DNA of 63,311 nucleotides, counting the filler, from Intoshia linei (Eukaryota; Animalia; Orthonectida), in NCBI GenBank assembly GCA_001642005.1. It is 6 parts of 6 records of this genome, joined end to end, with 100 filler letters (N's around TTAATTAATTAA, not from the genome) between each part and the next. Parts side by side here need not be neighbours in the genome. Positions count along the whole stretch, not along the records: positions 10,906 to 13,527 come from LWCA01002265.1; 5 more parts are not named here. One strand, given 5' to 3'. The position numbers were made by a program, and so were the translations under genes. Below, piece after piece: positions 5,005 through 63,250 of this stretch. Below the pieces are notes generated by a model. The model was not told the origin of the DNA. It was given only the letters and a program-made list of their open reading frames with translations, and did no database searches. Numbering within the stretch: the stretch's first letter is position 1; each line of letters begins with the position of its first letter.

Positions 5005-5420
5005 ATGAGTGGTTCTTAATAGAGGGAATTTTACTATTTGAAGGGGGAATTGAATATTCACAAATTAATCCATTAAAAATATATTAATGATTCGTGGGCG
5101 ATCGATGCATAGTATACATTGTATTTATTGAAGAATCAATAATTAAATTTTGGTCTAAGATATGTAATTTATACCTGAATCTCGGAGAAAAAATTATTAG
5201 AATTCTGTTACTTTTCGCATCAACGTACTTATGTGAATGTGGATTTTCTACTCTATTAGACATAACAAATCAAAAAATAAGCAGATTAAATGTTGTTGAC
5301 GATTTACGTTGTGCTCTTTCTTCTACTCAATTTCGTATTTTTAAATTAACAAAAAATAAATCTGGTCAAAATTATCATTGATTAAAACTAATCATTGTAA
5401 ATCAGGGGTAATCAGTTTTT
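5005..5420 (+). mobile_element. hAT (Buster/Charlie-type) transposase C-terminal dimerisation-domain fragment
   Basis: ORF 5094-5381 contains FW...RILLLFASTYLCECGFSTL...K.SRLNVVDDLRCALS, the typical hAT dimerisation motif. A hAT-like end (agtggttcttaa) lies near 5008. Confidence 0.85.
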
Positions 5421-8122: not shown

Positions 8123-10085
8123 CTGGGTTGACCGTTATGTACTACGTACAAACAGCACCTAGCTCTGCCGAGGGCACATTATTATACCAAAAAAATAAAT
8201 TCACGTTGAACATCTAACTTAAAAATACTACTTTCACTATTATCAATTCTTTAAAGGAGTGGTTCCCAAACTTGTTTCAGGTGGAACCATCATATCACAT
8301 TACTTTTTACTTTAAAGTGAATTATTCCATCTTAATTTTTATTGTTAACATTTGCGTAAAGAATTTTAAAAACAATTGTTATCCGATTTTTTTAATTTAT
8401 TAGACAGAATGTATGTATAATATTAAAAATAAGGTAAAAACAGTCCAATCCTAAAAATTGTCATAAATAGTATAAATTCCAGAAAAATAAATTATAAAAA
8501 CCTATTTTGTCATTTTCAATGTGATGATATATATTCAGTACCAATTTAATAAATAGTTAAAAATACCAATTATGTATCAATAATTAACCGAATCTTCACT
8601 TTATAAACATATTTCAGGTGAATTTTACCAATATTGCAAATGATTGTAATAAATATAAAAATGATAATATAAATTTGTATTACTTTTAGTTTTGTTGTTG
8701 TAGTTTAAATTTGAAACAAAATGTTTTGAAAATAAGAATTTAAAAATTGCGAAGGAATGAATTATATAGATTTTCATTCATATTTCTTTATTAGAAATAT
8801 ATAGACGTTTAATGCACATTTTTTTGAAATTGTAGGATCAATATTTTATTTCAGTTAATACAATTTCAATTTTTATTTTAATCGAAATGTTTGAAAAATT
8901 ATTTTTCACCAGGAATATGTGGATTTATGCGATTCAAATTTGTATTTGTATCAACTGGAATAAGCTCTATCAGAATATTTATTTTTTTTTTAATTTTCGG
9001 ACCGTTAATTATTTCACAATTTAGTTTTAATAAAATATTTCGAAAAAATACAATTCAATTTTTTAAATTTAGGGCATAAATGTAAAGTGAAAAAAATTTT
9101 GTATTGAAAATTCAATCGTTGATAAAAATCGAACTAAGACAGCTAGAATAAAAATTAAAAAACTAATATGTTTAATTATAAACGGTTATTAACATAATAC
9201 TCTGTAAACCATGACAATTCACTATAACACTGTTTTAAAAAAATAAAGTTATATTTTAATTTTATTATAAGATTTGTAATGATTGATTTAAAATGTTAAA
9301 CCCACAGCGAGTAGATATTTTTGTCAAATAAAATTGTATATTAATTGGTTTTTCCCTAAAATACACCATTTGCAGGCTAAGCATTAGGGATGTTCCAAAA
9401 TTTTATAAATTAGGTCCAAATACTGATAAAGTTGCGTGTGATAGTTTTTATGATAATCGTTAAAAGAAGAAAAATTTTTGAAAATTTTTGATTATCATAA
9501 AACTATCACACGCGACTTTATCAGTATTTGGACCATGAAATTTTGAAAAAAAGTATATAAAATCATTCTTACTAACCATCCTTGATTCTTTGATGGGTGT
9601 GACACCCTACTGTATATGGATACTAAAATGCTTTTTTGACAGTGAAGGCGTCACTTATTCAGATTGAAATTTTTTATGTGTGTTAACAGGATGCAACTGT
9701 ATCATCTGTGAATTTTTTGAAATTCTAGGGCTGTTTTTATTAAAAAAAGAAGGATAATTTGTGGTTTTGGCCCTGAAGATATAATTTAATATAATAGATA
9801 TAATTAATAGATATAATTTTTTTAAATTTAAATTTATGATAATGTTTATGATTTTAAAATCCACATCAGCGTGTATATTTTTTTAAATTCTCCAACTCGT
9901 TTGATTTTCAAAAAGAGGGACAACTAGGGTTTTTGACCCGTAAGATGTGAAACTGGGAGGTTGAAATTATGTTTGCGCACACCCGGAAAAAACTGTAACT
10001 GAAATGTGGACTTTATAAAATTCTAAAACGGGTAGTTATTTAAATACAGCGTAACACACACAAACAAAAATAGCGTAGCATATTA
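8123..10085 (-). mobile_element. Non-autonomous Helitron-like element (~1.9 kb) with nested MITE at ~9385-9610
   Basis: Extensive identity to 44479-46156, 52568-54187 and the reverse complement of 14950-16152. The hairpin/CTRG end is at 8123; the other end is interrupted by a CAC-terminal element at 10086. Confidence 0.8.
9385..9610. mobile_element. hAT-type MITE (TAGGG termini) with internal ~50-bp-arm inverted repeat at 9413-9534
   Basis: ggtccaaatactgataaagttgcgtgtgatagttttta...aaaactatcacacgcgactttatcagtatttggacc. The end cttgattctttgatgggtgtgacacccta is shared with elements at ~54804 and 56100. Confidence 0.7.
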
Positions 10086-10805
10086 CACTGTCTGACATTG
10101 AAAAATTGATCTCAGATAAAATTATATATTAATAATCCTTATTTTTTCACGGTTACTATGATATGCTTCGTATCAAATATACCGCTCGCAATCGGGAATA
10201 ATTCCACTAATCCTTTTTACATAATAGGATTATGTTGCCTATGATATTTACTAAATATACTTTTATTTATTTATTGTTTATTTTTGATTATAAAAATGAA
10301 TTGTAATTATTTTAAAACAAAACACATTTTGTCACATATGTGGTGTTTATTTAATTTTAAAAAATAAAAAATACGAATTTTCTGAAAATTTGATGAACTT
10401 AACCATTTAAAATATGAATGCATTGTGGAATTAAATGATTGGACACCTTACTTTATGTGTTCAAGCTGTCATGCGTCTTTATATCAAAAAAATAATAAAT
10501 TTGCGAAGCCTATAATATGGACAAAAATTTACATGTGATTTTGATTGTTATTATTGCAGTTGTAATCAATACCTAAAAATAATTGCACAAATTGATCCAA
10601 ATATCCAAATCTACTATCATCGACAATTTTAATTTCTCGAAAATTCATCGTGGAGACTAATCCATCAGATGCAATAGATGAATCATCGCAATCATTAATT
10701 AAATCTAGTTTGGAGTTTGAACTTTCTCAGAATTCTCAAAAGGTTTTAAACACCAATCTCAATTGGATGAAATAATTGTTTCAATGAGATTGACAAAAGA
10801 TAAGT
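10086..10805 (+). mobile_element. Chapaev3-like (CMC) DNA transposon 5' part with frameshifted transposase
   Basis: TTA|CACTG terminus. Translation FCHICG...WTP..MCSSCHASL...KFAKPIIW...DCYYC matches the FCYICG/WAPH..C..C/PMVW/DCYFC N-terminus of this family. Near-identical to 39314-39719. Confidence 0.7.
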
Positions 10806-10905
10806 NNNNNNNNNNNNNNNNNNNNNNNNNNNNNNNNNNNNNNNNNNNNTTAATTAATTAANNNNNNNNNNNNNNNNNNNNNNNNNNNNNNNNNNNNNNN
10901 NNNNN
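10806..10905. other. Assembly gap with artificial TTAATTAATTAA linker (also ~13528-13627, 35063-35161, 39720-39819, 50522-50621)
   Basis: An identical N-run/TTAATTAATTAA/N-run cassette occurs five times. Confidence 0.97.
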
Positions 10906-11700
10906 CTGAATCAAATTGGGTACCTTGATCGGTGTGAATTTGATTTGGAACACCATACCTTGTGACAATATTATTTAATATGTTATATGCAACACAATCC
11001 GCCGTTTTTTCTTCAATAAGAAAGATTTCAGGCCGACCAGTAAAATGATCGACCATGACCAATAAATAACGATTTCCGTTTTTGGAAGAGTGTAATCAAT
11101 GACGATGACAAAGGTGTTCGACGTAATAATCGTAATATAAACGGTTTCAACGGCAGACACAACGGATTTTACTGTTAAGAAATAACTCAGTAGTCGACAC
11201 ATCCACAAAAGAACATTCAATATAAACAGATATAAACGAACGCGTGACTTAACTAACAGAATTTCGGGACAAATGCGACGTCTAAATTTAGTTTTTAAAG
11301 ATTACAGCAATTTCATAGATACATTGAATGATTACATGTCATCTGCAAAATTACCTTAACCACTTAAAATCGGTTAATGCTATCATCGATTCTGCAAAAT
11401 TAAATACAACGAAAATTATTATCGAGTCATTCTATTAAATGACCTTGTTAGAAACTTATGTAATTCTGTATTGTTACAGGATTTAACAGTTTAACATTTC
11501 AAATACTTATTTACTAATAAACCCGGCACAGCTGGAAGTTTTTGAAGCAATAATAATAATGGAAAAAGTAAACATTTCAATACACCATCCAGCATTCGTT
11601 TGCAGGTTGCTGGTCCGTTCATTAAACCATATGGCATTACTTTAAATTGATAAAGGAATTTGCCAGAAACCTGAGCAAAAGTCAAAGGTAGAAAAATATT
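10906..11700 (-). mobile_element. Decayed Ty3/Gypsy pol (RT fragment and integrase core)
   Basis: RT motif YQFKVMPYGLMNGPAT (11491-11685) and integrase VMVDHFTG..E...TA..VA...RYGVPNQIHTDQGTQF (10906-11062). The RT-then-IN order is Gypsy-type. Confidence 0.88.
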
Positions 11701-11839
11701 TATGTCCTTTTAAGCTATCAAAGACATGAGTTGTTTTGGAAACAGGATAAATGTCTTGTTTGGTGTGTACATTTTTACGTACCGTAATTTTTATTCTATA
11801 TATATAGCATATATTTCTATTCTTAAGTCCTAGTAGTTA

Positions 11840-12660
11840 TATGGAACAGAAAAAATCAAAACCGGAGATCCCAAACAATTTGAAATTACAAATTCCAATC
11901 TTTGATAATTCAGATATTAAGACGTGGTGTAATCGCATTGAACTATGGTCTAATTGTACAACCGGCTCTCAGTCCGAATAGGTGATATTAATAATATTTT
12001 CATTAAAAACAGAACTACGAAAAATAATTTTACATAAAGATGAAACACCAAAAAAAGTCAATAATTTGCTAGCCATTATCACACAATCTTTTGGTATTAA
12101 GAATTTATCAGCAGTAGAAGCTTGTAACAAAATCTGTCGTTTATTTTAGTCCCAAATACACTCTCAAATACTTTTCTCCTCCTCGACTATTTATCTCGAA
12201 AGTTAAATGATTAACAAAAATTGCTTTCAAAAATGAAAAAAACATATCACGATTGACATATAAGTTTGCCTTAGACGCGGTCAAAAATGTAAATTTAAAT
12301 GTTTATACGAGTATACTGCATCTATCAACCAATGTCAATTAATTTATTCAATTGATAAAATTAAATCCACCTTTAGAACGACCTTAAAATTATAATGATA
12401 AACATCTGGATAATATCAATAAAAGGTTTGAAATGAGATTTAATAAAGCAAATAAACAATTTAGAAATAATAATCATGATCGCACGTTAAATAATGTGAA
12501 TAAATTCGATGCTCTGAAAGAGTATGTTAATAATAAACAAGATGATCAAAGCAATGATAAAGTATGTTGTAACTGTGGTACGCGCTACGCGGTACACAAG
12601 CTGAAAAAAAATGATAAAACAATCAATCAACAATGTGAATTTACTAGTACGCAGAGATAA
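11840..12660 (+). mobile_element. Decayed LTR-retrotransposon gag-like region
   Basis: MEQKKSKPEIPNNLKLQIPIFDNSDIKTWCNRIELW... resembles a capsid-like start, carries internal stops, and ends in a degenerate zinc knuckle CCNCGTRYAVH. Confidence 0.55.
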
Positions 12661-12883
12661 CTATATTAAAGGTATATTCTGGAATCTTTCTTCGCAACGT
12701 CATTACAAATGTTCTTACTGGGTAACACTGATTCATTTATATCATTTCTAATAAATATATCACCCTTGTATGTATATATGGCTTTTACACAAGGAAAATT
12801 AATCATACCCAATAGAATTCGCAAATTATTGAGTGTTAGTTACTGATGTCAACAAACATATCGCAAACATTAAGGAAAAATAA

Positions 12884-13414
12884 GTGTTCGAGAAAAAGAT
12901 CGGCTCTAGTATTGACAGACAAGTTAATTTAAATAATTTATTGGTAACATATGGTAAAAACGTCAACGATGTCAACATGCCTAATGCAAATGTAGCGGAT
13001 AACGTCGATGATTTGAGACGTGTGGCTGTTGATAATGGTAATGTTAATCAAAATTTTCAACATCAAAACGGGTCATACTTGGCTGTAGTAGATAGAAATT
13101 TCTTAAATGAATGTGCGGCAAGATTTAATACTAACAGACCTTCGGATATATTGATAGTGACCACAAAATTATTGGAAAAAGAACAGAATTACATGAATAA
13201 AGCATTCAGTAATATCAAAATCATTTACGACGACACTGGGTGTAAAACTGGACACGCTTTCGCTCGAGTAGCATCTATGCTCACTCGATTAAGAATTAAT
13301 CATATTTTGATAACATCTAACGTTTCAAACGACACGGTACTAAATATCGCATCTTCTAGATGGTTGATAAGGTTGAAATTTTTCACGAATTACACTAGGC
13401 TTGTCTTAAATTAG
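12884..13414 (+). other. Endogenous viral element: N-terminal capping methyltransferase fragment of an alpha-like (virga/nege-like) +ssRNA virus replicase
   Basis: RPSDILIVTTKLLEKEQNYMNKAFSNIKIIYDDTGCKTGHAFARVASML..DTVLNIAS aligns by eye with tobamovirus [52 protein letters not shown], including the invariant His. Intronless and less AT-rich than the flanks. Confidence 0.65.
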
Positions 13415-14949
13415 TGCGACTATAAGTACGTTATTTTAATTTTAACGTTGTTTTAACAAATAATTGGTGTAGTAATCAGTAATTGCTAAAATTAAAATAT
13501 TATAAAATATTAAAAATATATATTTATNNNNNNNNNNNNNNNNNNNNNNNNNNNNNNNNNNNNNNNNNNNNTTAATTAATTAANNNNNNNNNNNNNNNNN
13601 NNNNNNNNNNNNNNNNNNNNNNNNNNNACATGTGACATTGTATTTATATTTTAATTTTCAAGTAAATTTAAAATTTAAGTTGGATTTTCAATTAATTTAT
13701 TTTTTTGGTATAATAAAGATGTGCTCTCGGCAGAGCTAGGTTCTGTTTGTACGTAGTACATTACAGTCAATCTAGTATTTTATATATTTTTAAATGATAA
13801 TTTTGGGTTTTCACAAATGGTATTAGAAATCCGTTGATGAATATACTCAATGTTATCTATATTCACATTAAAAAGCTGAGGGCTCGTACCCACATAATCT
13901 GTCAAAATTGGATTACAGTATTCATTTTTGGTTCTAATTCACGCTACTCCCCAAAAATACAAAAGTCAACATTTTTATTACCTTAACTTTTGTGTTTTGG
14001 AAAGATATTATCATACACGACCCATGAATTATTCCGTGTTAAATAAATATGGACACACAAAATAGGTCGAGAATTCCTCGTTTAAATTTAAAAAAATGGT
14101 ATATATGAAAATTGCTAAAACCGGCAATGTATAATCTTCCAAAATCGTAAAACATGTTAAAAGGGCATAGACCTCTATTTTTAAATATTCAAAATTTGGG
14201 TAGCAATAAAACAAACCATAGGATTCAATTTATGAGATTTTCACCCATATTTCTTTATTGAAAATGTGGAGACGTTCAATGCACATTTTTTTTGAAATTA
14301 TAGGATGCATATTTTTAATTTTAAAAGTCATTTTTCATCGGGAATGCGTATATATCTAGGGTTGATATTTTGTATCTATATCAAGTGGAATAAGCTGTAC
14401 CAGCATAATCTCTTTTTTTAATTATAGACAGTAATACATTTTTTTTATTATTAATTGCGTTTTTTGCATTAGACTAATCAGTTTTTATTTATTTTGTGAC
14501 GGAATTTCGGTCTTTTTTAAAATTTAAATATCTACAAGTATACTTTTATATTATACTCAATAAACAAATTGGACAATCTGCATAATAAAAATAAAACTTA
14601 AAAATAAAAAATTTTAATGTATCTATAAACCATTTATAGTAATCTCGTATTTTTTTGAAAATATAACGTAACTGAACGAATTATATAATTCATAAATTTT
14701 GGACATTATTTTAAATAATATAGAAGTCTTTTATAGTTGCATAATAAAAATTACGGGGTATATACTGGTTTTCAATTTTCCAATCACACTCTTAACATAA
14801 GTTAAGGTAACAAAAGGAAAGAATCGCGTTTAATTTGTGAAAATTGACTCAAAAATACTATGAAAATTATATTTTATGTTTAATTTTTTATTATCACATA
14901 TTATTAACATTTTCATTATTAAAAAGGTTCAGTATCAAGTTAAATATTA

Positions 14950-20068: not shown

Positions 20069-23000
20069 TCAAATACTACAAAACCGCCCATACCGAATAT
20101 ATCTATTGATAATACATGTACGAACCAAAAATTCAAACTACAACTCAATTTTACGAACATTGTAATTTATAACGTAAACTTTTCATTTTAAAATAAAAAA
20201 AGGTTTAATTTTTTAATCACGTTTAAACATAATAAAATTTGTATCTTTCCATACTATATTTTGATTATATTTATTGTTATTTTAAAATAATTTTAATTAC
20301 AAATAAAATCAATTGCACCTGTATATAATCTATACTTTCTGACTGAGATTCGACTTTAATTATTGAAATTAATAAATACTATTCGTTTAATAATTTCACA
20401 ATTACTATTTATTATAAATTTTTATCAGTTAAATTAAGAATTCTAGTTCAAACTCCAGTATTAATAAAAATATGATACTACAGAAAAATTTTAAACATAC
20501 AAGGATATAGTTGTTCAATGTACATAGTTGTAATAGTATTTCAATATTTAAGTATTTCGAGTAGACTAATCTAGTTTCAGATAATTTAAATTTAAACTCA
20601 TAATCAATGAATTTTATTATCAGTGTATTAAAGCTGACTGAAAATTGGAAAATTATACAATGTTTATTATAGATTGGTGATTGTGAGTTACGCATAAATA
20701 ATATATACAAAGGCATTTAACTACTGGTCGTATTTGAGGATTTATATTTATTTTCGAAAATTCACATAAAAGTAATCAAGATTGAGTTTAATGGTAAAAA
20801 AAGTAAATTTAATAATAAAATGTTTTAATTAGTTTTGTCAAAGCACACTTTCCCCAATTCAACTCAAAATATTAAATAGTACATTAATTTTAAATTTTTA
20901 AAGTCAATTTTAATAAAATTCAAATTTTAGGTACAAATAATAAAAATATCGATATATCAGAAAATTCTTTTCAAGTAGACAAGGAAAGTTCTCTACTAAC
21001 TACAAATGAAAGTTCTCTAATCGATCTTAATGAAAGTCTAGATTTTGAAAATGATGAAAAAGAAACAGAAATTAATGATATTGACAGTACACCGATGCAA
21101 GCACAAGCAACCATCAATTATTTAAAAACTACAAATGATAATGAAGAAAATATTAAAAGAATAGAAATAGCTGAAACATATTCAAATGGTATTCCAGTAA
21201 AATTTATTTATCTTGCTATAGATAAAAATTTGCCTCAAAATCAATCTATAAATATTACACATTGTAAAGTTAAAACTGAATTAGAAACTGAACTTGAACT
21301 TGAAACAGAAAACTCAACTTTAAATGTTGATTCCACATTAGAAATTAATAATTTAAATAATTTTGATACAATTAGTTGTGACGAAAAAAAAGTGAATGAT
21401 AAAATACAACAATTGGAGGACAGTGAACGCTGTTCACAGGATAAAAACGACATGAAAATTGTTAATAAAATATGTAAAAATATTAAAATGATAGAAAAGG
21501 CTGATGAAACTAAATCTAAAACTGAAATTACTACTGAACCATCAAATAAATTTAACAAAAAACAAGAAAAATGTGATATAAATTTCAATGATAAAAAAAT
21601 ATATGTTATGTACAAAAATTTAAATGTAAAATATTTTGATAAATCATCGTCACAAGAATGCAAAAAAAAAATTTGCATAAAAAAAGATCGAATAGAATGT
21701 GATAAAATTCAATCTTCAAATAGAAAACGTCGTTATAAGGATACAACACAAAATGATGAAAAACTTTTAAAAACTGTTATTGAAATTATAGGAGAACAAA
21801 TGAAAAAAGAATTGGGTTCGTCAGTTTCAACCAAAAAATCTAATTTAAAAAAAAACGTGACACAAAAAAATATCATTTCAAATAAAATTAATCATAAAAT
21901 TTGTAAAAATTTTTCCTCTGATAATATAACCATTTTAACTGAAAATAGAGAACCAAGGATTAATATCAAACCTGTTAAAGCTGTTCACAAGTATGTTAAT
22001 ACTAGCATCATTTCAAATTCAAAAACTTTAAAATTGACTAAAAATAAATTGTTACAATCGGAACAGCATATAAGTTTTATACCTGTTACAAATATGAAAC
22101 AAATTGAATGGACTAATAAACAAATTGTAGATACTAAACACAATATTCCTCCTTTGGATAATCTCAATTTTAATAAAAATAATGATTCTATCTTATCAAA
22201 GCAAAAAAGTATGTTTTTATCATAATTTAGTTTTTAATTTCATTTTCCATCTTTTGGGATATATACTTCGACACCAAGCGTGGCCACTTAAAATTAAAAA
22301 TAAGCCTTGTAATTTCCTCGAACGATGCGTATGACAATCTGTCATATATCCCTAGCCACTTCTCCAAGGATCAGAAACTTGACTTGCCATTTTTAATAGT
22401 TATGATATTCAAGAATATAATTTTTTTTATTAACTGGAGATTAACTAATTTTTTTTAAATTCTAGGACTATTTATATTTTTTAAAATGAGATATTTGGGG
22501 TTGTGGCTCTGAAGATATACCTTTTAAAAATTATGATAATGTTCATGATTTTAAAATTTGTGTCAGTGTATATTTTTTTAATTTTCACATTAAAAGAAAG
22601 AAGGATATTGGGGTTTTTAACCGGTAAGATGTAAGTTTCTGAGATTGAAATTTATCTTACTTTTCCATGGAAAAACTTTATTATTAGAAATATGGAATTT
22701 TTAAAATTCTAGGACTTCGGTATTCAAATTAACGATAAGAGACCAACAAAGAGTTTATATAATTTTGTATTGTGTGTTAGATGTGAATAAAAAATTAATC
22801 ACACGGAGCCATCTGCACAGTTTGAACTCATAGGAACATTTGGACATGAATTAGAATCACTGGATTATTTTATTATAAAAAATTTTTGCCTTTTTGTATT
22901 GATAAATTGTGACTAATTTACATTTTTATATAGTTTTAATTTATGATTATGATTTTGTTTGTTGTAGGATTTTTATTTTTAATGTGGTATTAATTAAACT

Positions 23001-26000: not shown

Positions 26001-27753
26001 AATCTTACATCTTTACGGCCAAAACTACAAATTAACCTTTTTTGTAAAAGTGAAAAAAATTTTATAATTTTATACAATAAATTCTGGAATATTTTTTCAA
26101 ATCATCAGCATTATCATAAATGACAACCTCAAAAAAGATAATTTTCACGATCAAAACTACAGATTACTATGATTTTTAAATGAAAACTGCCTTATAATTT
26201 AAAAAAAATTACAAATGGTTCAGTTGTATCCTGTTAACACACACAAAAATTTCAATCTGAATAAGTGACACCTTTACGTTCAAAAAAGCACTTTAGTATT
26301 ATTTTTTTTATTTCGAAACTATTTTATTAAAACAAAAATTTGAAATAATTAACTGTCCCACAATTAAGAAAAAAAATTATTCTGAAACTCCTTATTCCAG
26401 TTGATATAAATATAACATTTCAATTTCAGTAATCTACGCATTCCCGGTGAAAAATAATTTTTAATATTACAAATTTATTTATTATGTATCAATCAATATT
26501 TTTTAAATGTTGGATTAATGTAATCTTGTAGATATCATTGAATCACTGAATGACAATATTCAAAAACCTGAATTTAAAAAGAAAAATCGTAACAATCATA
26601 GATGTATAAAATCGCATCTATCTCAAGCGAATCACCCAATACAAAATGTAAATATTAATTCTAAGCCCGTTTACACGACCAATGCAAAAATAGAAACAGA
26701 TAATTATTGCACTTCAGATTCAATATATACTAGTCAAAATGATGAAAAATTTGATCCGGTAGAATATGAAAAGTCAAAATATTACCAACAATACGGTGAA
26801 TATAACCAGAACGCTGGTGTATCAAATATATCTACACCTGCAAAATATGATCAATCCGATAATCATAATTCTAATATAAATCAGTCAAATAATGCATGCG
26901 TTATATCACTTTTAAATTCAACTCTAAATTCGAACGAATGCAGAAATGGCAATCAATTTTCGGAATTTAACTCTATAAATTATAGAAAAAGTTATAATCC
27001 TAATTGGTCTCAAAACTATTATGATAATAATTCAAATTTGAATTTATCCAATCCACAAAAGTAAACTTTGACGAAATTTTAAATTTATTAATAATCAATT
27101 TTAGTCTCTATCAAGTAAACAATGAATACATATATACCGGTTCAAGTACCCAAAAATATCCGAATAATCAGAGTAATTCAGTTCAAAATTGCGTTGAAGG
27201 TAATATCTTGAATATATTTATATATATACTTTATTATAATATTTTTCATATTAACTGTAAAAAAATTTAAGCTGAAATGTCTAATATTCAAAACTCTCAA
27301 AACTTTGCTTATCCTCAAAATGAATACGTAATTATATAATTTATAAATGTTAAATATATTATAGGAACAAAACCATTATACTCAAAATTATGTAAATCAA
27401 ACCAATATATATAATCATCATAATTCTAATCATTACATATCGGTATACTGTGTTTTTTTTAATGTTACAAATGTTTAGGACAAACAAAAGTCAAAAATTA
27501 AAACCGTTATTGCAAATTCATCCCCAAGTCAAGTATAAACTTTTTTTCAAAAATTAATTATTTATAGCATCAAATTCCATATAAAGACAATTATGTGGAT
27601 GTTTACGAATGCAAAGTTTGTGGAAAGTAATTTATTGAATTTAAAATTATTATTATTATACGTATTAATAATGTATTTATTAGATCATTTAAAAAGATTA
27701 AATCCAGAAATGCACACATGAAAATACATAAAAATCAAGATAAAAAGTCTTGA
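20069..27753 (+). CDS. TRERF1/ZNF541/MIDEAS-like C2H2 zinc-finger protein (spliced; 5' end uncertain)
   Basis: Large exon ~20931-22208 splices in frame to 26532-27060, followed by several short exons. The last two exons give YECKVCGK|SFKKIKSRNAHMKIHKNQDKKS* (TGA at 27751-27753), matching the KIKSRNAHMK finger of this family. Confidence 0.7.
22250..22390 (-). pseudogene. Decayed Ran fragment (intronic, antisense)
   Basis: QVKFLILGE...IVIRIVRGNYKAY..VATLGVEVY. VATLGVEV (22264-22287) is identical to Ran switch I. A related nucleotide copy lies at ~17535-17625 (+). Confidence 0.7.
23722..24559. mobile_element. hAT non-autonomous element with 8-bp TSD CTCTAATA
   Basis: TIRs cagtgtttctcaacc / ggttgagaaccactg; ctctaata at 23714-23721 and 24560-24567. 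Confidence 0.9.
25205..25418. mobile_element. Tc1/mariner (pogo/Tigger-like) MITE with TA TSD
   Basis: TA|cagtcaaaatctcatttaac ... gttaaatgagattttgactg|TA. Confidence 0.9.
25503..25668. mobile_element. MITE; second copy at ~54643-54801
   Basis: Inverted arms of ~45 bp and a shared core aaatgtaaagccaaaactacttat..atgatgacgaataaaaattttcggcttaaa. Confidence 0.8.
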
Positions 27754-27838
27754 TAAATCAAATTTTAATTTTAATGGGTCATATTTGTGACAAATGTGTT
27801 ATATTGTTTTTGTTTATATTATAAATAAATGTTCATTT

Positions 27839-29087
27839 TTAGTCTTCGTCATTTTCTCGGATTATTGGAATACCTATGTATGATGCAGATACATTATGTA
27901 TATTGCTGTTTAAGAAATTACCGTCCAATTTTTTTAAATTTTTCAACTTATTTATACTCAAATCTCTCCAATCACCCTCTTCTTTGTGTTTATCTTCAAG
28001 TGGGTTTCCTATTTATATTTTTAGTTGTGATATTATCAACTAAATCATTTACCCACCATCAGCAATTCTTCCAAATTGGGTAAATCAGCCTAAATTCATT
28101 TTTTTAAAAACGAAATATTAATATTTATCGAACCAATTTGTTGAATTCGGCCCAATCTTTCACCAAGTTATTGGAGATGTATAAAATCTACATTTATATT
28201 AAAATATCGATTTCGATAATACAAACTTTTAGCTTTTTGAGCACATTAACTCCTTTTAATTTTTCAATTTGGTTATATGATATCCACAGTTCTTCCAATG
28301 TATCGCCAACAGCTTCCTAAGGTTAATTTATTTTTTAGATGAAGATTTGGTATTACCAAACCAGTCATACTTTTAATGTTGTTTCGTCCTAATGAAAGAA
28401 TTTTTAAATTTTCTAAATTTTTTTATAATTATAAAGAGTAATCAAAATTCATTGTTTTGGCGGGTCAAATTTAAACATTATTTTTGTTACTAATAATAAA
28501 ATGTCAAGATTGTGATGTTCTAGCTAATATTTTATGCCTGGTTTTATATTGTTTTTCAGTGGAATAAAATATTAATTCGTTAAAAATACAAATTAAAACA
28601 CAGAACACAGTTACAAAATGTGAAAACATTTTTATAAATTAAATTATGGAGAACACGTTAACATTCTATAAAGCTTGCAGTAAAATGTGGGATCAGTCAA
28701 TTACACAAAAATTGGTTCACTCGTGGTAGATGGTTTTGACCCTATTTTAAGACATACTTAGTCCATTCAAATTAGCAATTTTTTCTATACAATTTGTCGA
28801 TATGGATAATTTTCTATATTAATTACAATTTATATTTTAAAATTTAATTTTTGTTATACGTGCAAGTTGAAAGAGTAGATAAGGATGCATCCATTTTTTC
28901 GATTGGTGGATTTTGTGCAAATAATGCAATTTCTTCTGATTCTGACGCTTTTAAGCCACTCTGAGCTTCCTAAATTAAATGTACATTTTAAATCTATATT
29001 TAAAGTACCCATTTTGCCAATGCTTCTTTTATAGTTGTTCCTTTTGACTAAAATTATTTTAATTTTATTTCATTTTTAATGTACCAT
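27839..29087 (-). CDS. DNAL1: Dynein axonemal light chain 1 (LC1, leucine-rich repeat), complete, about 10 exons
   Basis: Spliced translation M|[13 protein letters not shown]|[37 protein letters not shown]|[18 protein letters not shown]|[19 protein letters not shown]|[30 protein letters not shown]|[18 protein letters not shown]|[12 protein letters not shown]|[14 protein letters not shown]...KKLD|[11 protein letters not shown]. Nearly colinear with vertebrate DNAL1. Confidence 0.97.
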
Positions 29088-35058: not shown

Positions 35059-35899
35059 TATANNNNNNNNNNNNNNNNNNNNNNNNNNNNNNNNNNNNNN
35101 NNNNNNTTAATTAATTAANNNNNNNNNNNNNNNNNNNNNNNNNNNNNNNNNNNNNNNNNNNNGAGCTTTCAGAATCTGAGGGCCGCACATTTAAGAAAAA
35201 TTTTAAATTTAAATTAGAATTTTTAATATTAATTTGATCTAGTATTTGATATTTAATTAATATATTATTAAAATACGGACTAATTTTGGATTTTAATAAA
35301 TTTAATTTTTATTAACCCTTACGAAACAATAACACGTATATATACAAAAATTAACAATCATAAATTTACAATTGTTTGTATACTAGGGTGTCAACTATAT
35401 TAAATAAAGATTTATAACGAATATAAAACATTTTTTAATAAATGTTATTTTTATTTATACTTAATACAATATTTGTTTGTGTGTCTGTGTGTTCCCGTTT
35501 ATTTCAATAACTACCAGTCTTAGAATTTTATAAAGTCCCCATTTCAATTATAGTTTTTTCCGGATGTTAGCAAAGTAAATTTCAACCTCCCAAAAGCATT
35601 TTAGTATTCATATATTTTTTTTCCAGAATATTTTATTATAACAACACATGTGAAATAATTAATTATCCAAAAATTAAAAAAAAGTTCTTCTGATAGAGCT
35701 TATCCAGTTGATATAAATACAAAATTTCAACCCCACAAATCTACGCATTCCCGGTGAAAAATAACTTTTAATATATTATCAACCTTATCATTTACTGCAT
35801 TATAATTATTTCCTGTTCAGTTTTAATTCAGAATATAAAATGAACTGGATTCAGAATATAGTATTTTTTATTAAAATTATTTGCGTTTAATATTTAGAT

Positions 35900-39233: not shown

Positions 39234-39313
39234 CACGCAATTACAATCACGTCGCGTCTATTATATTTCAAATATAATTTATTTTATTGTTTACACAAAG
39301 TAAACATTGATAA

Positions 39314-39719
39314 CACTATCTGACATTGAAAAATTGATCTCAAATAAAATTATATATTAATAATCCTTATTTTTTCACGGTTACTATGATATGCTTCGTA
39401 TCAAATATACCGTTCGCTATCGGGAATAATTCGATTAATCCTTTTTACATAATAGGATTATGTTGCCTATGATATTTACTAAATATACTTTTATTTATTT
39501 ATTGTTTATTTTTGATTATAAAAATGAATTGTAATTATTTTAAAAAAAACACATTTTGTCACATATGTGGTGTTTATTTAAAGTTAAAAAATAAAAAATA
39601 CGAATTTTCTGAAAATTTGATGAACTTATACCATTTAAAATATGAATGCATTGTGGAATTAAATTATTGGACACCTTGCTTTATGTGTTCAAGCTGTCAT
39701 GCGTCTTTATACCAAAAAA
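39314..39719 (+). mobile_element. Chapaev3-like transposon 5' part, ORF open up to the gap
   Basis: TAA|CACT terminus; ORF MNCNYFKKNTFCHICGVYL...WTPCFMCSSCHASL. Confidence 0.72.
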
Positions 39720-41135
39720 NNNNNNNNNNNNNNNNNNNNNNNNNNNNNNNNNNNNNNNNNNNNTTAATTAATTAANNNNNNNNNNNNNNNNNNNNNNNNN
39801 NNNNNNNNNNNNNNNNNNNTAATGAAAGATATCATTTGATAAATATTTTCCATCATCATTGTTTGTCAACTAGTGCATTTTGTCTGTTATGCTTAAATTA
39901 ATCAAATATATTGGCTCATTTAGCACATTATTGTTATTTTATATAATTAGCAATAACCAATGAATGTATTAATGATAATCTGACAGTTAATTTTTGTAAC
40001 GGTTACAATTCTTAATTACATTATATTAAATTTGATATTACTGTATATTACATTTATTACTTTGTATATGTAGAGGGTAATTCGTGGTTTTGACCTTGAA
40101 TATATAAGTTTCTGAGACTGAGATTTAGGAAAATGTTACAGTGTAATGATTGTGATGAGATTGTGGTTTTTGTATCATCAATATTCCTTATTTTAAAGAA
40201 TCTTTTCGTATCCTTGTACTTATCGGCATCTTTTGTTGTAGTATCATTCAATTTGTTTCTATCATTGTGATCCTCGTTTTTTTGGTATGATCTTTTTTTT
40301 GTACATTGGAATCTGGTTTGTGCTTGGATTCATTTGTATGTGTCTCCAGTAAATGATCTGCTTGTTGAATATTTGAATTATCCATCTTATTTGTTTGATA
40401 ATTTCTGCTATCTTTGACATCCGTGGCTGCTGATTCGGGCGTACTCGTGATGTTTGTATTATCCGAGGGTTTACGTGAGGATTTAAAGTTTTTCTTGTTA
40501 ATGGTTTGATTTTTTCAATTATTTGTATTTGGTTTTTGTGGTATGTTTTTTATTGGAGATACTTGATGATATGTGAATTGAGTTGATAGTGGGTAGTACA
40601 AATGATGTATGTAAATACTCTCAATATTTTCAATTTGGTTTTTATCGGTTTTTTTTAAGGTTTTTAGATTTAATTGATGTTTAAAATTGAGATTTGTTGT
40701 AAAATTTAAAACAATCTATGTGGAAATGCATTGTATTTATTACAGCACATGTCATTTTTTCACTAATGTATGCTTTTGTAGGTATTTTAATGTATTAAGG
40801 CTAAATTACAGAGGAAATTAGAATCAATAAATTTTAGTTTGTTATTAAAAAATTAAGAAAACTTTAAAATAGAATCAACCTGAACAGTTTACGTGCTAAA
40901 ATTCGATATTGTTAATATTTTAATAGATCTTTGGGAATGAATTATTTAAATATTTTATAAAAAATCGTTCCATTTTTGTAAAATTGACGAAATGAAAGTC
41001 TTTGGTACAAAATGTATATGAAATACTGTTCGGTATGTCAATTCCAAGCATTGTGATATACAGTACTCCATAATTGACATATGTTACTTTTACTCTGTTA
41101 ACTATGCCTTTCAGCTTATAATAAAACTAATGTAA

Positions 41136-41410
41136 CACTTGTTCATTCAAATTTTGATATATACCATATAGCCCAAAATGGGTACTTTATGCTGTATAAA
41201 GAATGAAATGCTGGTTAGATTTCAATAAAAATTTATCTACAATAAATTTATGACAATTTGATGATTTCTGTGTACCACACCTAATCTTTATTTTCTAATT
41301 AATCTAATTTGTGGCGAATCTTTCTTCAAAGTTGGATGGAAGCGTTCCCCATGTTCATTAGAATGTAGATGTGTATTGGGTAATTTATTGAAATGATATT
41401 GTAACAAATG
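41136..41410 (-). mobile_element. Chapaev3-like transposon 3' remnant
   Basis: HFNKLPNTHLHSNEHGERFH resembles the family motif HLDFFP.NLG.VSDEHGERFHQ. Terminus TAA|CACTTGTTCATTCAAATTTTGAT resembles the left end CACTGTCTGACATTGAAAAATTGAT. Confidence 0.55.
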
Positions 41411-41839
41411 AATTGCCTCCAAATCCCTGAAATCTGAAACTCTTTTCTGTAGTGTACGAGGGCAATTTCTACTTACTGGAACCGGAACCAGTGCTTTTAG
41501 AGTATAATGAAATTTCTGTAAACAGCGATCAATTGTGCTGATATTTAAATTTACATTATACTCTAGAAGCACTTTTTCTTGTAATTGTTTCAATTTTAAG
41601 ATGCAATTATCATCAATCCTTCTTTTGGTTGCCTCCTTCTGCTGTTCGATAAATTTACCTCTTGTATTGCCACCACATAAACCACATTTAACAACTCCAG
41701 TTTTCAGGAATTTGTTCACTATATTCGACACGGTTATCCGAGGCAATGACAACAAATGTGCAATAGCCGTTACTGATATCCCTTTCAGGCATTTGTTAAT
41801 TATTATTTCTCTTTGTATTTCCGAGATTTGATTAGCCAT
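41410..41839 (-). mobile_element. Tc1/IS630-family transposase N-terminal (HTH) fragment
   Basis: ISEIQREIII...GISVTAIAHLLSLPRITVSNIVNKFLKTG...GG...LKQLQEKV...STIDRCL..FHYTLK. The catalytic DDE region is missing. Confidence 0.8.
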
Positions 41840-41910
41840 GTATTAACTGATTTATGAAAATTTAATTTCATTTCTTGGTTTAAATGTGTCATAATAAGAT
41901 TCTCACAATT

Positions 41911-50186: not shown

Positions 50187-50521
50187 TTAGGTCGTTTCAT
50201 AAGTAATGTCGTTTTTTTAACAAAATTAAAAAGTTTATTTGATTACATTAAAAATAAAGTTATATTATAAAATATTCAACATTGCTTTCCAGTCTTTTTC
50301 CAACGTTCCGGTAGTCTATTTATACTATTAGTATAAAAACTCGCTACTTTATTGGACAAAAACGTTTCTATGTCCAATTTTAACCTTTCATTTGAAGTGT
50401 ATTTTTTACGATAGTAATGGTTACTCATAGCTATAAATAGGTAATAATCAGATGGTGCTAAGTCTGTTGAATACGGTGGATGTGGTAATACTACAAATTT
50501 TAACTCCTTTAGAAGCTGAGA
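50187..50521 (-). mobile_element. mariner (DD34D) transposase C-terminus and right TIR
   Basis: VLPHPPYSTDLAPSDYYLF...FY..SI.RLPERW; terminus TA|TTAGGTCGTTTCATAAGTAATGTCG. Confidence 0.93.
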
Positions 50522-51409
50522 NNNNNNNNNNNNNNNNNNNNNNNNNNNNNNNNNNNNNNNNNNNNTTAATTAATTAANNNNNNNNNNNNNNNNNNNNNNN
50601 NNNNNNNNNNNNNNNNNNNNNTAATGGCAATACAATTATGTTTTAAAATTTATATAACGGTGCTACAGCCGACAAAACCCCAGAAATATTATTATGGCGA
50701 ATAAGAGATGTCATCACTGTTCAGAAAAAAATTTAACGAAAAAAACAAACTACGTGAATTTTTTTTCCAAAAGTTAAATAAATTTGATTTTTAAGTTAAA
50801 TTTTTTTCTTTTTATAGGTTAAAAAAAATCGCCCTAATGATAATATATATGATTTTAAAAACTATCCCAGAATTTATGTTTAAAAAAAATTTGGGACATG
50901 TTTAATTTTTAAAACAAAGGGTAATTTGGAATATTGACCATGGTATGTATCAAGGTGTCAAGGTATGCGTTTTAGAGGCTGGGATTAACGACAATATTCA
51001 TGATTTTAAAACACGTCCCAGAATATATGTTTTATTACATTTTTGGGCTAATTTTTTTTTAAACAAAAAGGAAAATTGTGTTTTGACCTTGTAGAACTGA
51101 AATTAGGAAACTGAAAAATAGATCAAACCACGCTCTGCGAAAAACTGTATTAGAAGTGGGATTTTTTTAAATGCTGCGACTGTCAATTTTTTCAATAAAG
51201 GTTACACACACAAACAGAAACACTCACAGACATTCATTTTTATATACTAAGTAGTAAAATAAAGTAAGTAAACGATTTTGTAGTTTATTTTTACTTAAAT
51301 TAAATACATTTTTGACATTTAGCTTTTTCAATTATTAGCTTTTGTAAAAGTTCATGTAAAAAACAATCAAAGTGTCTAAGGGTTAATTAATCCACAATAA
51401 AAAGTTATG

Positions 51410-60400: not shown

Positions 60401-63250
60401 TAATTTTAATTAACAAAGATTAAAAATTAATATTCAGTAATGAAATTGAACAATATCAAAGGAAAATTGTCCGCTTCAGTGAACATAAAATTTTATTCCT
60501 CATTGTTAACTCATAAAATTTGAAATTAAAATATTGGAAACAAATGAAAATATATTTGATAAATATATAAAAAAAATGTTCCAAGAATATGAAGTATGTT
60601 ATAACAATCAGGAATGGAAGCTATCAACGTGTACTTGTCGATTTTTTTTTAAAAATCTTAAATGTAAACACTTAATATTGGTAGCAATGCATTTAAATTT
60701 ATTGAAAAATGATGATTTATTGGTTGAATTAAAATCAATTTTCATCGGAGAGAAAAAAAGAGGACGTCTCAAAGGAGCCATAGGCTTTAATTTTAGATTA
60801 AATAAACATTAATTAGTAGTAAATTTACTGTTTTCCTCATGTTATTTATATATTTGATACTACACATGCGATTTAATTTGATGTTTATTGTCATTATTTG
60901 ACTGTTCAATCAACTATTTTGATTTAAATTCAATTTTATTTTCTTAAAAATATCTTTATTTTGACTTGTCTGAATTTTATCGTCTATTAAAAATAATTTG
61001 AATAATATTCGATATTAGTTACAAAATCATTACTTGAGAAAGCTTGTGTTGCATATTTGCAACAATATGATTGTATCCTTGCATTGATTCCCAGAATATT
61101 TCATTAGATATGGATTCTTGATTTGGAGTACAAGGACCCTAATAATTTTTTTTATAGAGTATATATAAATGTATCATAATAATAATGTTAAATTCAAAAC
61201 ATTTAATATTAAGTGTCGAATAAGTAAAAAGGCTTTGATGCTGCCTACGAATTTGTGATTTATGGAATATAATAATATCTATAAAATAAATAAAATTAAT
61301 TTAAATAATAGTGACGGCTGCCAGATACACTATTAACAGAGAAATAGCCGTCACTGACATTCCCTGGTTTTTTCTTCACTGATATTATATTAATATTTAT
61401 TGATTAATTAATTAAGTCTAATTCATCAGATGATCATCTTAATTTAAGAGGAATATTCCTTATTTAATTTTAATAACACGATTGCTTGCAACCATAACAC
61501 CATTCTTGGAACGATGGTATTTTGGCTTGAAAAGCTCTATATATAAAAATACTCTTTTATTTAGCTGTACTTATTAAAATATAACTTGTAATATTGTCAC
61601 TATACTGTTGCTTTATGGAATACAACGAAACAATATACCTTCAACATAATTAACCCCTTTATTAATATTTATATTTTTTTGATAAATATCATTATATACC
61701 ATATATCATAAATTCGTAGACAGCATCAAAACCTTTTCACCTATTCGACAGGTAATAATAAATGATTTAAAATTAATTTTGTTTCAGAAAAAATTAATAT
61801 TAATTTAAATATAAAGGGAATTGTAATTAAGTATCGATTTCATAAAAAATATATAAAAACGAGATTAAAGGGAATTATTCATTTTAAATTAAACGTTAAT
61901 GTGAAATTCAAGGGTAGGAATGACTTCTTTAAATGATTGTTAATAATGAGTAACATTTTTAATTAACATTTTATTATTGAATTTATTTTTTTTGATAGAA
62001 TTAGATAAGTTCGTCCTCGGCACAGCTAGGTGCTGTTTGTACATATTAAATAACAGTCAACCTAGTTAAATATAAAAAATTACTTGCATATATTCTGTCA
62101 ATGTTCGAAATATTTGTATAGATACTGCAATACACTTTTTGAATGATTCACACCCTATAATATCAATAGTAGATTTGGTGGAATAATAATTGAATAGATC
62201 CATCATTGATTTTTGTAGTTTTGCCATATAACTGACTGTCACTGTTACCAAATTTATAGAATTTTCACAATTTTGATTTCTCAGATAAGATTGAAAACCT
62301 ATACATAATAGAAACGCAATTTAATTATTATTAAATTATTTAAGGCTATAGTGTCAACTAGTGTATACTGGAGGTGTGTAATTTTTATTAATTTTTTTTG
62401 AAATGTGTTGGTCCAAGCACGGTTAAAATAAATGGTTTAAACTTTTGAACATTATTTACATTATTAGAGATTTTGAACAACATTTACTTTATACTTACTA
62501 AGTAGCTTCAATATTATCTACTTCGTAAAAACAGTATATAGCTCTGTTCAGGGGAATTATGTTAATTTTGTGTTTTATTATTGATTATTTTATAATCATT
62601 AACGCCCCTAATTTTTGTAAAATTGAACAATACTCAATACAATTTGCACACAATAATGTTTGCAATACTTATTAAATATGTTTTGAACTAAAATTATAAA
62701 AATGACACATCCAAGCATACAACGTATCTATGTATGGTAAAATTCATGTATTATGTAAAACTTTGTTTACCAATATTATGACCTTCACAAAGAAGTTGCA
62801 AAAAACGAAATATTTTGATAATAAATTCATAATCTGTAATAATGAAGTCCTTGTCGATGAAATGTAAATTGAAGTCATGATTATCCACTCCCATTATGTC
62901 TAGTGTTTTAGATCGGTAAAAGTTGCTTAACTCGAATTTACTAAATTAAAATTAATGTAATAGCATATTATTATAATGTAACTTCAGATTAATCTGTAAA
63001 CTATTTGAAAAATGCGCTCCAATTTTCCAATAAATTTACTAGACTCTAGTGACTAGAGTGTTTCATATTTTGATAAATCATAATAATATATATACAGTAG
63101 TTTTTGTACAATATGAATGAAAAGGGACCCAATATTTAATAAATTAATATAGTGAAGAAATTTTTTCAATACGAATGATAAATAAATTATTTCAAATGAT
63201 AAATAAATCATTACTGTCAAAACTGTTGAATTTAAAACATTGTATTTCAA
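51410..63250 (-). CDS. RYR: Ryanodine receptor, C-terminal portion (core solenoid, EF-hands, start of transmembrane region); partial
   Basis: Ordered exons IFRFLQLLCEGHN, FQSYLRNQ...IFRTLTEYMQ, GPCTPNQESIS..FWE, MIMLLSLLE|GNKVNGKIGLKMVDML, QFFDVFLKM, DENQDGIVTISEF, ERFYHPAKTIGFIFALLLKNLSEHLPN, YFSPFLGTIEIIG..IEIVYFEI..QWIKPQIR, FVDFCENSIFQ|MQ and the S1 helix ATRNFFKMKIMRLGITFLINTFLL. Confidence 0.93.
52568..54187 (-). mobile_element. Non-autonomous Helitron-like element in a RyR intron, both ends present
   Basis: Minus strand A|TCttaacttatataatat (54187) ... hairpin + CTTG variant|T (52568). Confidence 0.82.
56100..56190. mobile_element. 91-bp hAT MITE (TIR TAGGGTGTCA, TSD ATGTATAT)
   Basis: atgtatat at 56092-56099 and 56191-56198. 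Confidence 0.92.
57229..57578. mobile_element. hAT MITE, TSD (G)TTCTTGAT
   Basis: caggggtgtca ... tgacaccctg with gcggccc subterminal repeats, flanked by gttcttgat on both sides. Confidence 0.85.
60534..60812 (+). mobile_element. MULE/Mutator transposase C-terminal SWIM zinc-finger remnant
   Basis: STCTCRFFFKNLKCKHLI (CxCxnCxH) followed by KKRGR. Confidence 0.75.
61195..61775. repeat. Long imperfect inverted repeat (~110-bp arms) enclosing ~350 bp
   Basis: tgtcgaataagtaaaaaggctttgatgctgcctacgaatttgtgat pairs with atcataaattcgtagacagcatcaaaaccttttcacctattcgaca. Confidence 0.85.
61790..62065 (+). mobile_element. Helitron-family 3' end in a RyR intron
   Basis: cctcggcacagctaggtgctgtttgtac...aacagtcaacCTAG|t (62062-62065). 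Confidence 0.75.

Follow-up and report, generated by a model that had tools for sequence, protein, structure and literature searches.

Within the window, by which we mean the whole 63,311-nucleotide stretch of Intoshia linei DNA analysed here, an open reading frame (ORF) resembling part of an RNA-virus replicase raises two questions: how it came to stand among retroelement scraps, and which virus it records. The preliminary description had read it as the fossil of an undescribed Martellivirales-like virus. Our analysis favors an endogenous viral element (EVE) that derives from a highly divergent virus of Martellivirales type and is fused in the genomic DNA to a disrupted gag-like repeat (probability about 0.8); replicase profiles argue for the viral origin, and the family label holds only in part. 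The ORF lies on a 2622-base contig (10906-13527) bounded by gaps at both ends, on which we distinguish the following features.

10906-11095, minus strand: integrase core remnant (rve E 4.3e-9, 37 bits, over the cut-off), downstream of the reverse transcriptase (RT)
11086-11495, no strand assigned: second non-repeat segment, flanked by the integrase and RT remnants; paralog contigs stop at 11085 and 11496
11496-11770, minus strand: RT remnant of LTR type in two frames (RVT_1 E 7.4e-4 and 5.2e-3, both under the curated cut-off)
11811-12582, plus strand: decayed gag-like repeat, multi-copy and transcribed; in-frame stops at 11979, 12147, 12340 and 12385, frame change near 12140-12210
12583-13473, plus strand: non-repeat insert with the viral ORF; right end approximate; paralogs of the upstream repeat stop at 12582
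12884-13414, plus strand: viral ORF, stop-to-stop, 176 codons (176 aa); predicted N-terminal part of an alphavirus-supergroup (alto group) capping methyltransferase-guanylyltransferase
12977, plus strand: likely start ATG of the viral ORF, leaving 145 codons
13253-13276, plus strand: catalytic His124 with Arg at +4 and Ser at +7, in alphavirus-type spacing
13334-13354, plus strand: last recognisable motif (residues 151-157), 30 aa after the His, used in the block test; homology stops there

The ORF has the 176 codons first reported for it, a frame length that none of 2000 base shuffles of 12583-13527 reached; 145 codons were reached in two. A profile of 13 non-tobamovirus virga/nege-like replicase N-termini scored the ORF at 27.4 bits (E 5.2e-8), rank 1 of the 417 window ORFs of at least 40 aa (runner-up 4.1 bits). 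None of 2000 shuffles matched this score (maximum 10.8), the reversed protein scored -0.6, and a reversed-sequence profile run as a control gave -0.5 bits. Rank 1 was kept in 13/13 jackknife profiles with any one sequence left out (21.1-27.5 bits), and the profile minus a five-member clade still gave 15.6 bits. With tobamoviruses included (23 sequences) the ORF scored 21.1 bits, and with alphaviruses added (25 sequences) 24.4 bits, in both cases at rank 1/417 with 0/2000 shuffles as high; a profile of 10 tobamoviruses alone gave -0.4 bits. This first set derives from 120 IMG/VR loci collected with what we take to be the polymerase motif; of their 28 ORFs of at least 900 aa, 23 were kept and five, lacking a recognisable capping domain at the start, were left out. 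Pfam PF01660 was matched by 4/4 profile members tested. A second, separately gathered set (120 loci from a methyltransferase-motif scan, 98 usable, 54 representatives) scored the ORF at 16.6 bits, again at rank 1/417 with 0/2000 shuffles as high. Alignment of the ORF with the replicase profile by hhalign gave E 2.2e-5 and a probability of 76%. A full-length replicase profile run against 1686 six-frame chunks of the window matched only the ORF (E about 0.002; next 0.7) and placed it at the replicase N-terminus; the same search found no helicase or RdRp pieces.

Because the profiles score the ORF whereas its best pairwise score against any of the 54 viral representatives is only 5.9 bits, we conclude from sequence comparison that the ORF is homologous to the N-terminus of the alphavirus-supergroup capping enzyme and that its source virus stood far from everything sampled. 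The likeness had been placed in the C-terminal half of the ORF; its nature is upheld and its extent is larger, since the HMM match with the 13-sequence profile spans residues 47-141 and residues 151-157 add to it. The ORF would amount to about the first third of the capping enzyme (about 110 alignable residues, at one locus and in one sample). That it is instead a chance or host sequence with a coincidental likeness, as the empty standard searches and its choice for that likeness ahead of testing might suggest, is highly improbable: E 5e-8 over 417 ORFs amounts to about 1e-10 per sequence, which withstands correction for tens of thousands of families, and the signal recurs in two separately gathered sets and in a downstream motif outside the HMM match.

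Standard searches returned little. Pfam gave no family for the ORF at E up to 10, and the family that the preliminary description had put forward for a check, Vmethyltransf (PF01660), failed to match because the ORF sequence is too divergent and too short. With phmmer, 1.84 billion proteins yielded only the ORF itself and one chance match (P0003, a 53-aa repeat protein), which we rejected as a relative. Nothing was returned by PDB sequences, by a word-index search of proteins up to 2000 aa (hence without full nege-like replicases; also run with the alignment) or by an ESM Atlas feature search, whose structure rows derive from a model of pLDDT 0.45 and point to no family; against IMG/VR, the ORF itself gave 0/13 candidates. 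One of 253 metagenome candidates (L267) matched, and proved to be a bacterial membrane-protein gene in a polysaccharide-type cluster that has one short word in common with the ORF, a chance match. The single-sequence AlphaFold model of the ORF has a pLDDT of 41. An alignment-based model (pLDDT at least 90 over residues 91-140) gave Foldseek matches to Martellivirales replicases, which were not counted because the model was built on the same Martellivirales-type replicase sequences and is circular; a PDB fold search with it had no match at E up to 0.001. The RNA fold at the junction was nothing special (z 0.46). The ORF would thus record a virus absent from all searched libraries, one that BLAST and Pfam do not reach, and EVE screens built on RdRp or Pfam pass over pieces of this sort.

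The catalytic His announced for this ORF is present: His124 (13253) aligns with the invariant His of 16/16 viral sequences and is invariant in 17/17 rows. An invariant His before helix A is the likely m7GMP acceptor of the capping enzyme, according to the portion of PMC4392871 used here. The DxxR motif and the conserved Tyr are absent, the ORF stopping before both, and because of this absence the ORF is predicted to encode no working enzyme. A frameshifted continuation beyond the last motif seemed possible by eye but was rejected: reading past the ORF in other frames brought no gain (27.7 vs 26.3 bits), and shuffled tails were as good as other-frame continuation in 17/60 and 8/60 cases.

Four public runs bear on the junction. 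Three of them skip GT..AG introns (mostly 35-72 bases) and are RNA; X1 retains the introns and is DNA, possibly the sample behind the assembly and in that case not independent of it. One X1 contig spans 12433-13473 with 0 differences and bridges 12582/12583, with 150 bases on one side of the junction and about 890 on the other, so the joint between gag-like repeat and EVE, earlier singled out for checking, is present in one DNA contig. We found no paralog of the sequence from 12583 on, and the foreign segment starts there, 300 bases ahead of the ORF, rather than at 12800 as first placed. The ATG at 12977 has an A at -3. Because it lies 92 codons before the His, inside the 79-137 of relatives, 12583-12976 is likely a viral leader of about 300-390 bases followed by the start of ORF1, which would make the insert the 5' end of a viral genome. 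The ORF itself is probably a fossil without coding function, left by the 5' end of a positive-strand RNA virus not yet sampled. The insert was found in a single DNA run of the four, in this contig of depth 24.7; none of the RNA-run contigs among the matches listed carries it, which has no bearing on its expression either way. Of two further X1 contigs from the 12071-12445 region, one, at depth 11.2, matches exactly and the other, at depth 14.2, differs at 14 of 134 bases; each stops at 12331, a little short of the contig of depth 24.7 with the viral ORF. These values hint, weakly, that two loci or alleles carry an identical insert, and a depth of 24.7 against the 5-16 of host unique contigs may likewise reflect two copies, though contig depth is no copy number.

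Upstream of the junction, copies of the gag-like repeat about 90% identical are found in the DNA run as well as in two of the RNA runs, and the RNA runs with the transcribed repeat also contain spliced host genes of this window. Among the RNA copies listed, the match ends at 12582, beyond which one copy runs on for at least 255 bases in other sequence. The repeat (11811-12582) has no Pfam or PDB match, and its gag-like look is a resemblance that we presume. The claim that the ORF lies directly downstream of a decayed gag is therefore half sustained: a decayed same-strand repeat does end at 12582, but its identity as gag finds no backing in Pfam or PDB. An expressed paralog forms a 1287-base X2 RNA contig with about 230 and 270 unrelated bases at its sides; it may represent a short transcript in its own right instead of belonging to a gag-pol RNA.

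At the lesion rate of this repeat, which has several lesions in 247 codons, the chance of a frame such as the 145 codons from the ATG staying open is 0.03-0.17. Because the open frame adjoins the decayed repeat at such a chance, the data suggest that the insert is younger than the decay of its neighbor or, less likely, under selection. The notion that the ORF has been retained by the host as a functional gene, perhaps a dominant-negative decoy of viral replicase assembly, draws on this contrast, on the A at -3 and on the weak hint from depth of two identical copies. We consider it quite improbable, as the open-frame chance is not significant, a recent insertion accounts for the open frame equally well and the protein ends before the SAM-binding motif.

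In the intron-retaining X1, the possible source sample, the ORF exists as DNA and is continuous with one of the organism's own repeat families. A viral piece from a co-sequenced organism, or a misassembly, would place it outside this genome; the contig is linked to host genes only across gaps, its GC is 0.28-0.35 vs 0.25 for the scaffold, and only one DNA run contains the viral piece. This origin is nevertheless unlikely, since the junction contig runs without a difference into a repeat family found in three runs of the organism, and its depth is of the same order as that of host unique contigs (5.3-16.2, 8 listed).

Which virus lineage left the insert is a closer matter. Arg stands at His+7 in 54/54 virga-type representatives, where the ORF has Ser, and the pair Arg+4 and Ser+7 that the ORF carries occurs in 24/24 alphaviruses (26 loci, 2 left out as unrelated). 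Taxa without the +7 residue are given in PMC4392871, in the portion used here, as Alphavirus, Rubivirus, Benyvirus, Tetraviridae and Hepeviridae, of which only Alphavirus was compared with the ORF; the supplementary alignments of that paper may bear on these +4/+7 counts. Over the His block and the 151-157 block, two blocks picked after the likeness to alphaviruses had been noticed, the ORF scored 38.8 against 12 alphaviruses (0/121 window His sites and 0/1500 shuffles as high) and 11.3 against the virga-type set (1/121 and 13/1500 as high), below all 54 members of the latter (leave-one-out minimum 30.0). Residues 151-157, compared with the D-[IV]-G-G-N motif, had a block score of 6.3 in the virga-type set vs 18.1 in the alphaviruses, a contrast inflated by the selection of the virga set on that very motif. 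In a tree of 67 rows and 76 columns, the ORF falls beside 7 alphaviruses, weakly supported (94/85, not starred) and on a long branch (2.25). Elsewhere in the tree, many IMG/VR contigs found by the methyltransferase motif (L151, L184, L203, L220, L221, L227 and others) form clades apart from the tobamovirus/nege-like sequences; judged by these positions, they are unclassified Martellivirales-type viruses.

The leading alternative holds that the insert is an ordinary virga/nege-like EVE whose alphavirus-like motif arose by decay or chance, and we rate it a serious contender at a little under even odds. Significant scores come only from profiles containing virga/nege-type sequences: the alphavirus-only profile gave 4.7 bits (rank 1/417, E 0.55, 2/2000 shuffles as high) and hhalign against alphaviruses E 0.055. 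The distance of 92 aa from the ATG at 12977 to the His falls within the 79-137 aa of the 13 virga/nege-like relatives and outside the 36-47 aa of alphaviruses. One virga-type representative reaches 44.2 on the alphavirus blocks, above the ORF, and the long branch of the ORF in the tree points the same way. Against this alternative stand the two block scores, the +7 Ser codon, which is more than one substitution away from every Arg codon in the standard code, and a frame without stops, which makes heavy decay unlikely. The virga/nege-like label is thus retained for the upstream helices, which fit it, and not for the catalytic motif, which is of alphavirus type (+4 Arg, +7 Ser and residues 151-157).

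A Togaviridae-leaning source lineage is proposed here only tentatively, likewise at a little under even odds and on a par with an ordinary virga/nege-like source. More specifically, the insert could be a fossil of an unsampled sister lineage of alphaviruses, with a long virga/nege-type leader and an alphavirus catalytic motif, from a non-insect invertebrate host with a compact genome; we regard this as possible but doubtful. If true, it would supply a missing link in capping-enzyme evolution and root the Togaviridae-like viruses in a host group new to them. A virga/nege-type leader and an alphavirus-type catalytic motif in one ORF would in any case bear on the origin of the alphavirus capping enzyme.

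Returning to the EVE reading, the remaining retroelement remnants bear on how the viral sequence entered DNA. RT is followed by integrase in order on the minus strand, an order common to Bel/Pao as well, so that Ty3/Gypsy is not the sole fit. The remnants do lie near the ORF, as first noted, on the same 2622-base contig, yet on the opposite strand and back to back with the gag-like piece, which does not make one colinear gag-pol. Among the X1 contigs listed, no exact one crosses the putative inversion between the gag-like repeat and the RT, and at the listed variant sites in 11678-12063 X1 has paralog letters only. LTRs or a target-site duplication around the hybrid were found in none of the best 20 of at least 60 repeat families, and its flanks both end in gaps. 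The 410-base segment 11086-11495 has no Pfam or viral match in six frames, its GC and CpG are raised to the level of the viral ORF, and an X2 RNA contig of depth 2.6 matches 11153-11316 exactly; it may be a second captured foreign piece.

An RNA virus without an RT needs a host retroelement to reach DNA. In the proposed sequence of events, a retrotransposon RT would switch from its own template onto the RNA of a Martellivirales-type virus, probably one that combined a catalytic motif of alphavirus type with a long leader of virga/nege-like type, and copy the viral 5' end into DNA. Given an EVE, template switching by an LTR element as RT donor is the most likely route, at slightly better than even odds. 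The gag-like piece and the viral ORF have the same polarity. In Aedes, 543/614 LTR elements nearest an EVE share its polarity, which the portion of 10.1101/127498 used here reads as copy-choice recombination. A non-LTR RT or repair-mediated insertion into a TE pile would be alternative routes, and in ticks non-LTR elements are the NIRVS-associated class (PMC6580184, in the portion used here). Of the Gypsy template switching proposed earlier, the switching is plausible from the same-strand fusion; the attribution to Gypsy is weakened by an unproven gag, inverted pol remnants and no LTR seen. The locus would be an accumulation of TE and viral remnants on which small-RNA silencing could draw.

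The surrounding host sequence has a scaffold GC of 25% and intron-rich genes, with COX6B-family, cold-shock-domain, CLC channel, SET-domain and IP3R/RyR-associated exons. X1 contigs total 32 million letters and cover 30/30 bins of a 20-kb stretch. Introns of 35-70 bases and the small X1 contig total point to a compact genome, and the host is probably an animal. Two convergent host genes at 26532-29085 have very small introns, of 35-72 bases apart from one of 345. A single RNA contig covers both genes, which means that their ends overlap or abut; the minus-strand gene encodes leucine-rich repeats and presumably resembles axonemal dynein light chain. Long AT-rich exons at 20894-22225 and 26519-27064 (plus strand) are spliced over a 4.3-kb intron in an X3 RNA contig; the first has no Pfam match, and together they are a low-complexity host gene. 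DNA-transposon remnants lie at 41288-41842 (minus), 5091-5381 (plus), 60510-60812 (plus) and 50276-50569 (minus), and include a Tc1/Sleeping-Beauty-type HTH, a hAT dimerisation domain and a SWIM zinc finger; one of the four is what we take to be a mariner-like piece. A 240-base repeat with a Cys/His-rich coding remnant occurs at 10082-10321 and 39310-39549 (97% identity), each copy shortly before a gap, and is a young DNA-transposon-like family. The five gaps (10806-10905, 13528-13627, 35063-35162, 39720-39819 and 50522-50621) each consist of 44 N, a 12-base all-frame stop linker and 44 N; they are assembly linkers, not biology.

Kondo et al. are said to have described virga/nege-like NIRVS of insects in Virus Res in 2019. 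Within the portions of the sources used here, NIRVS of Martellivirales- and Virgaviridae-like type are frequent in Bombus (121 and 29 elements, respectively; PMC12922265) and in arthropods generally (PMC12548735), and nege/kita-like viruses are described from aphids (PMC7154061). Insects are well known to carry Martellivirales EVEs next to retroelements, so the kind of element is ordinary. Like insect Martellivirales/virga/nege-like NIRVS, as partly documented in these sources, the insert is a DNA copy of a positive-strand virus replicase piece, short at about 0.5-0.9 kb, with GC above that of the host and repeat-rich surroundings. Unlike them, it is far more divergent, with no pairwise match, and its host has tiny introns and a seemingly compact genome. 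From virga/nege-type enzymes the ORF differs in having neither the +7 Arg nor DxGGN.

With alphavirus nsP1 (Togaviridae) the ORF shares the His, Arg+4 and Ser+7 and a similar 7-residue motif 26-30 aa downstream of the His; the 76-column tree tentatively adds a sister position (94/85). It departs from nsP1 in its leader before the His (at least 92 aa vs 36-47) and in an alphavirus-only profile that is not significant. No alphavirus-like EVE was found in the literature by title or start of abstract, most subscription papers lying outside that scope. Invertebrate alpha-like viruses are known from nematode and crab, with BMRV1 among the alpha-like viruses (PMC11445058), and from an ascidian (10.1101/2024.12.15.628590), and flatworms carry unassigned Martellivirales (PMC9241645), each as stated in the portion of the source used here; BMRV1 and the ascidian virus are compared with the ORF through these descriptions. 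Unlike Aedes EVEs, the locus shows no LTR, has inverted pol remnants and spans 2.6 kb between gaps. Like the Aedes piRNA-cluster EVEs in the portion of 10.1101/127498 used here, it joins a viral piece to a likely LTR-element fragment of matching polarity, amid other LTR scraps, and like the LTR-associated EVEs described there, it would derive from the 5' part of a plus-strand genome.
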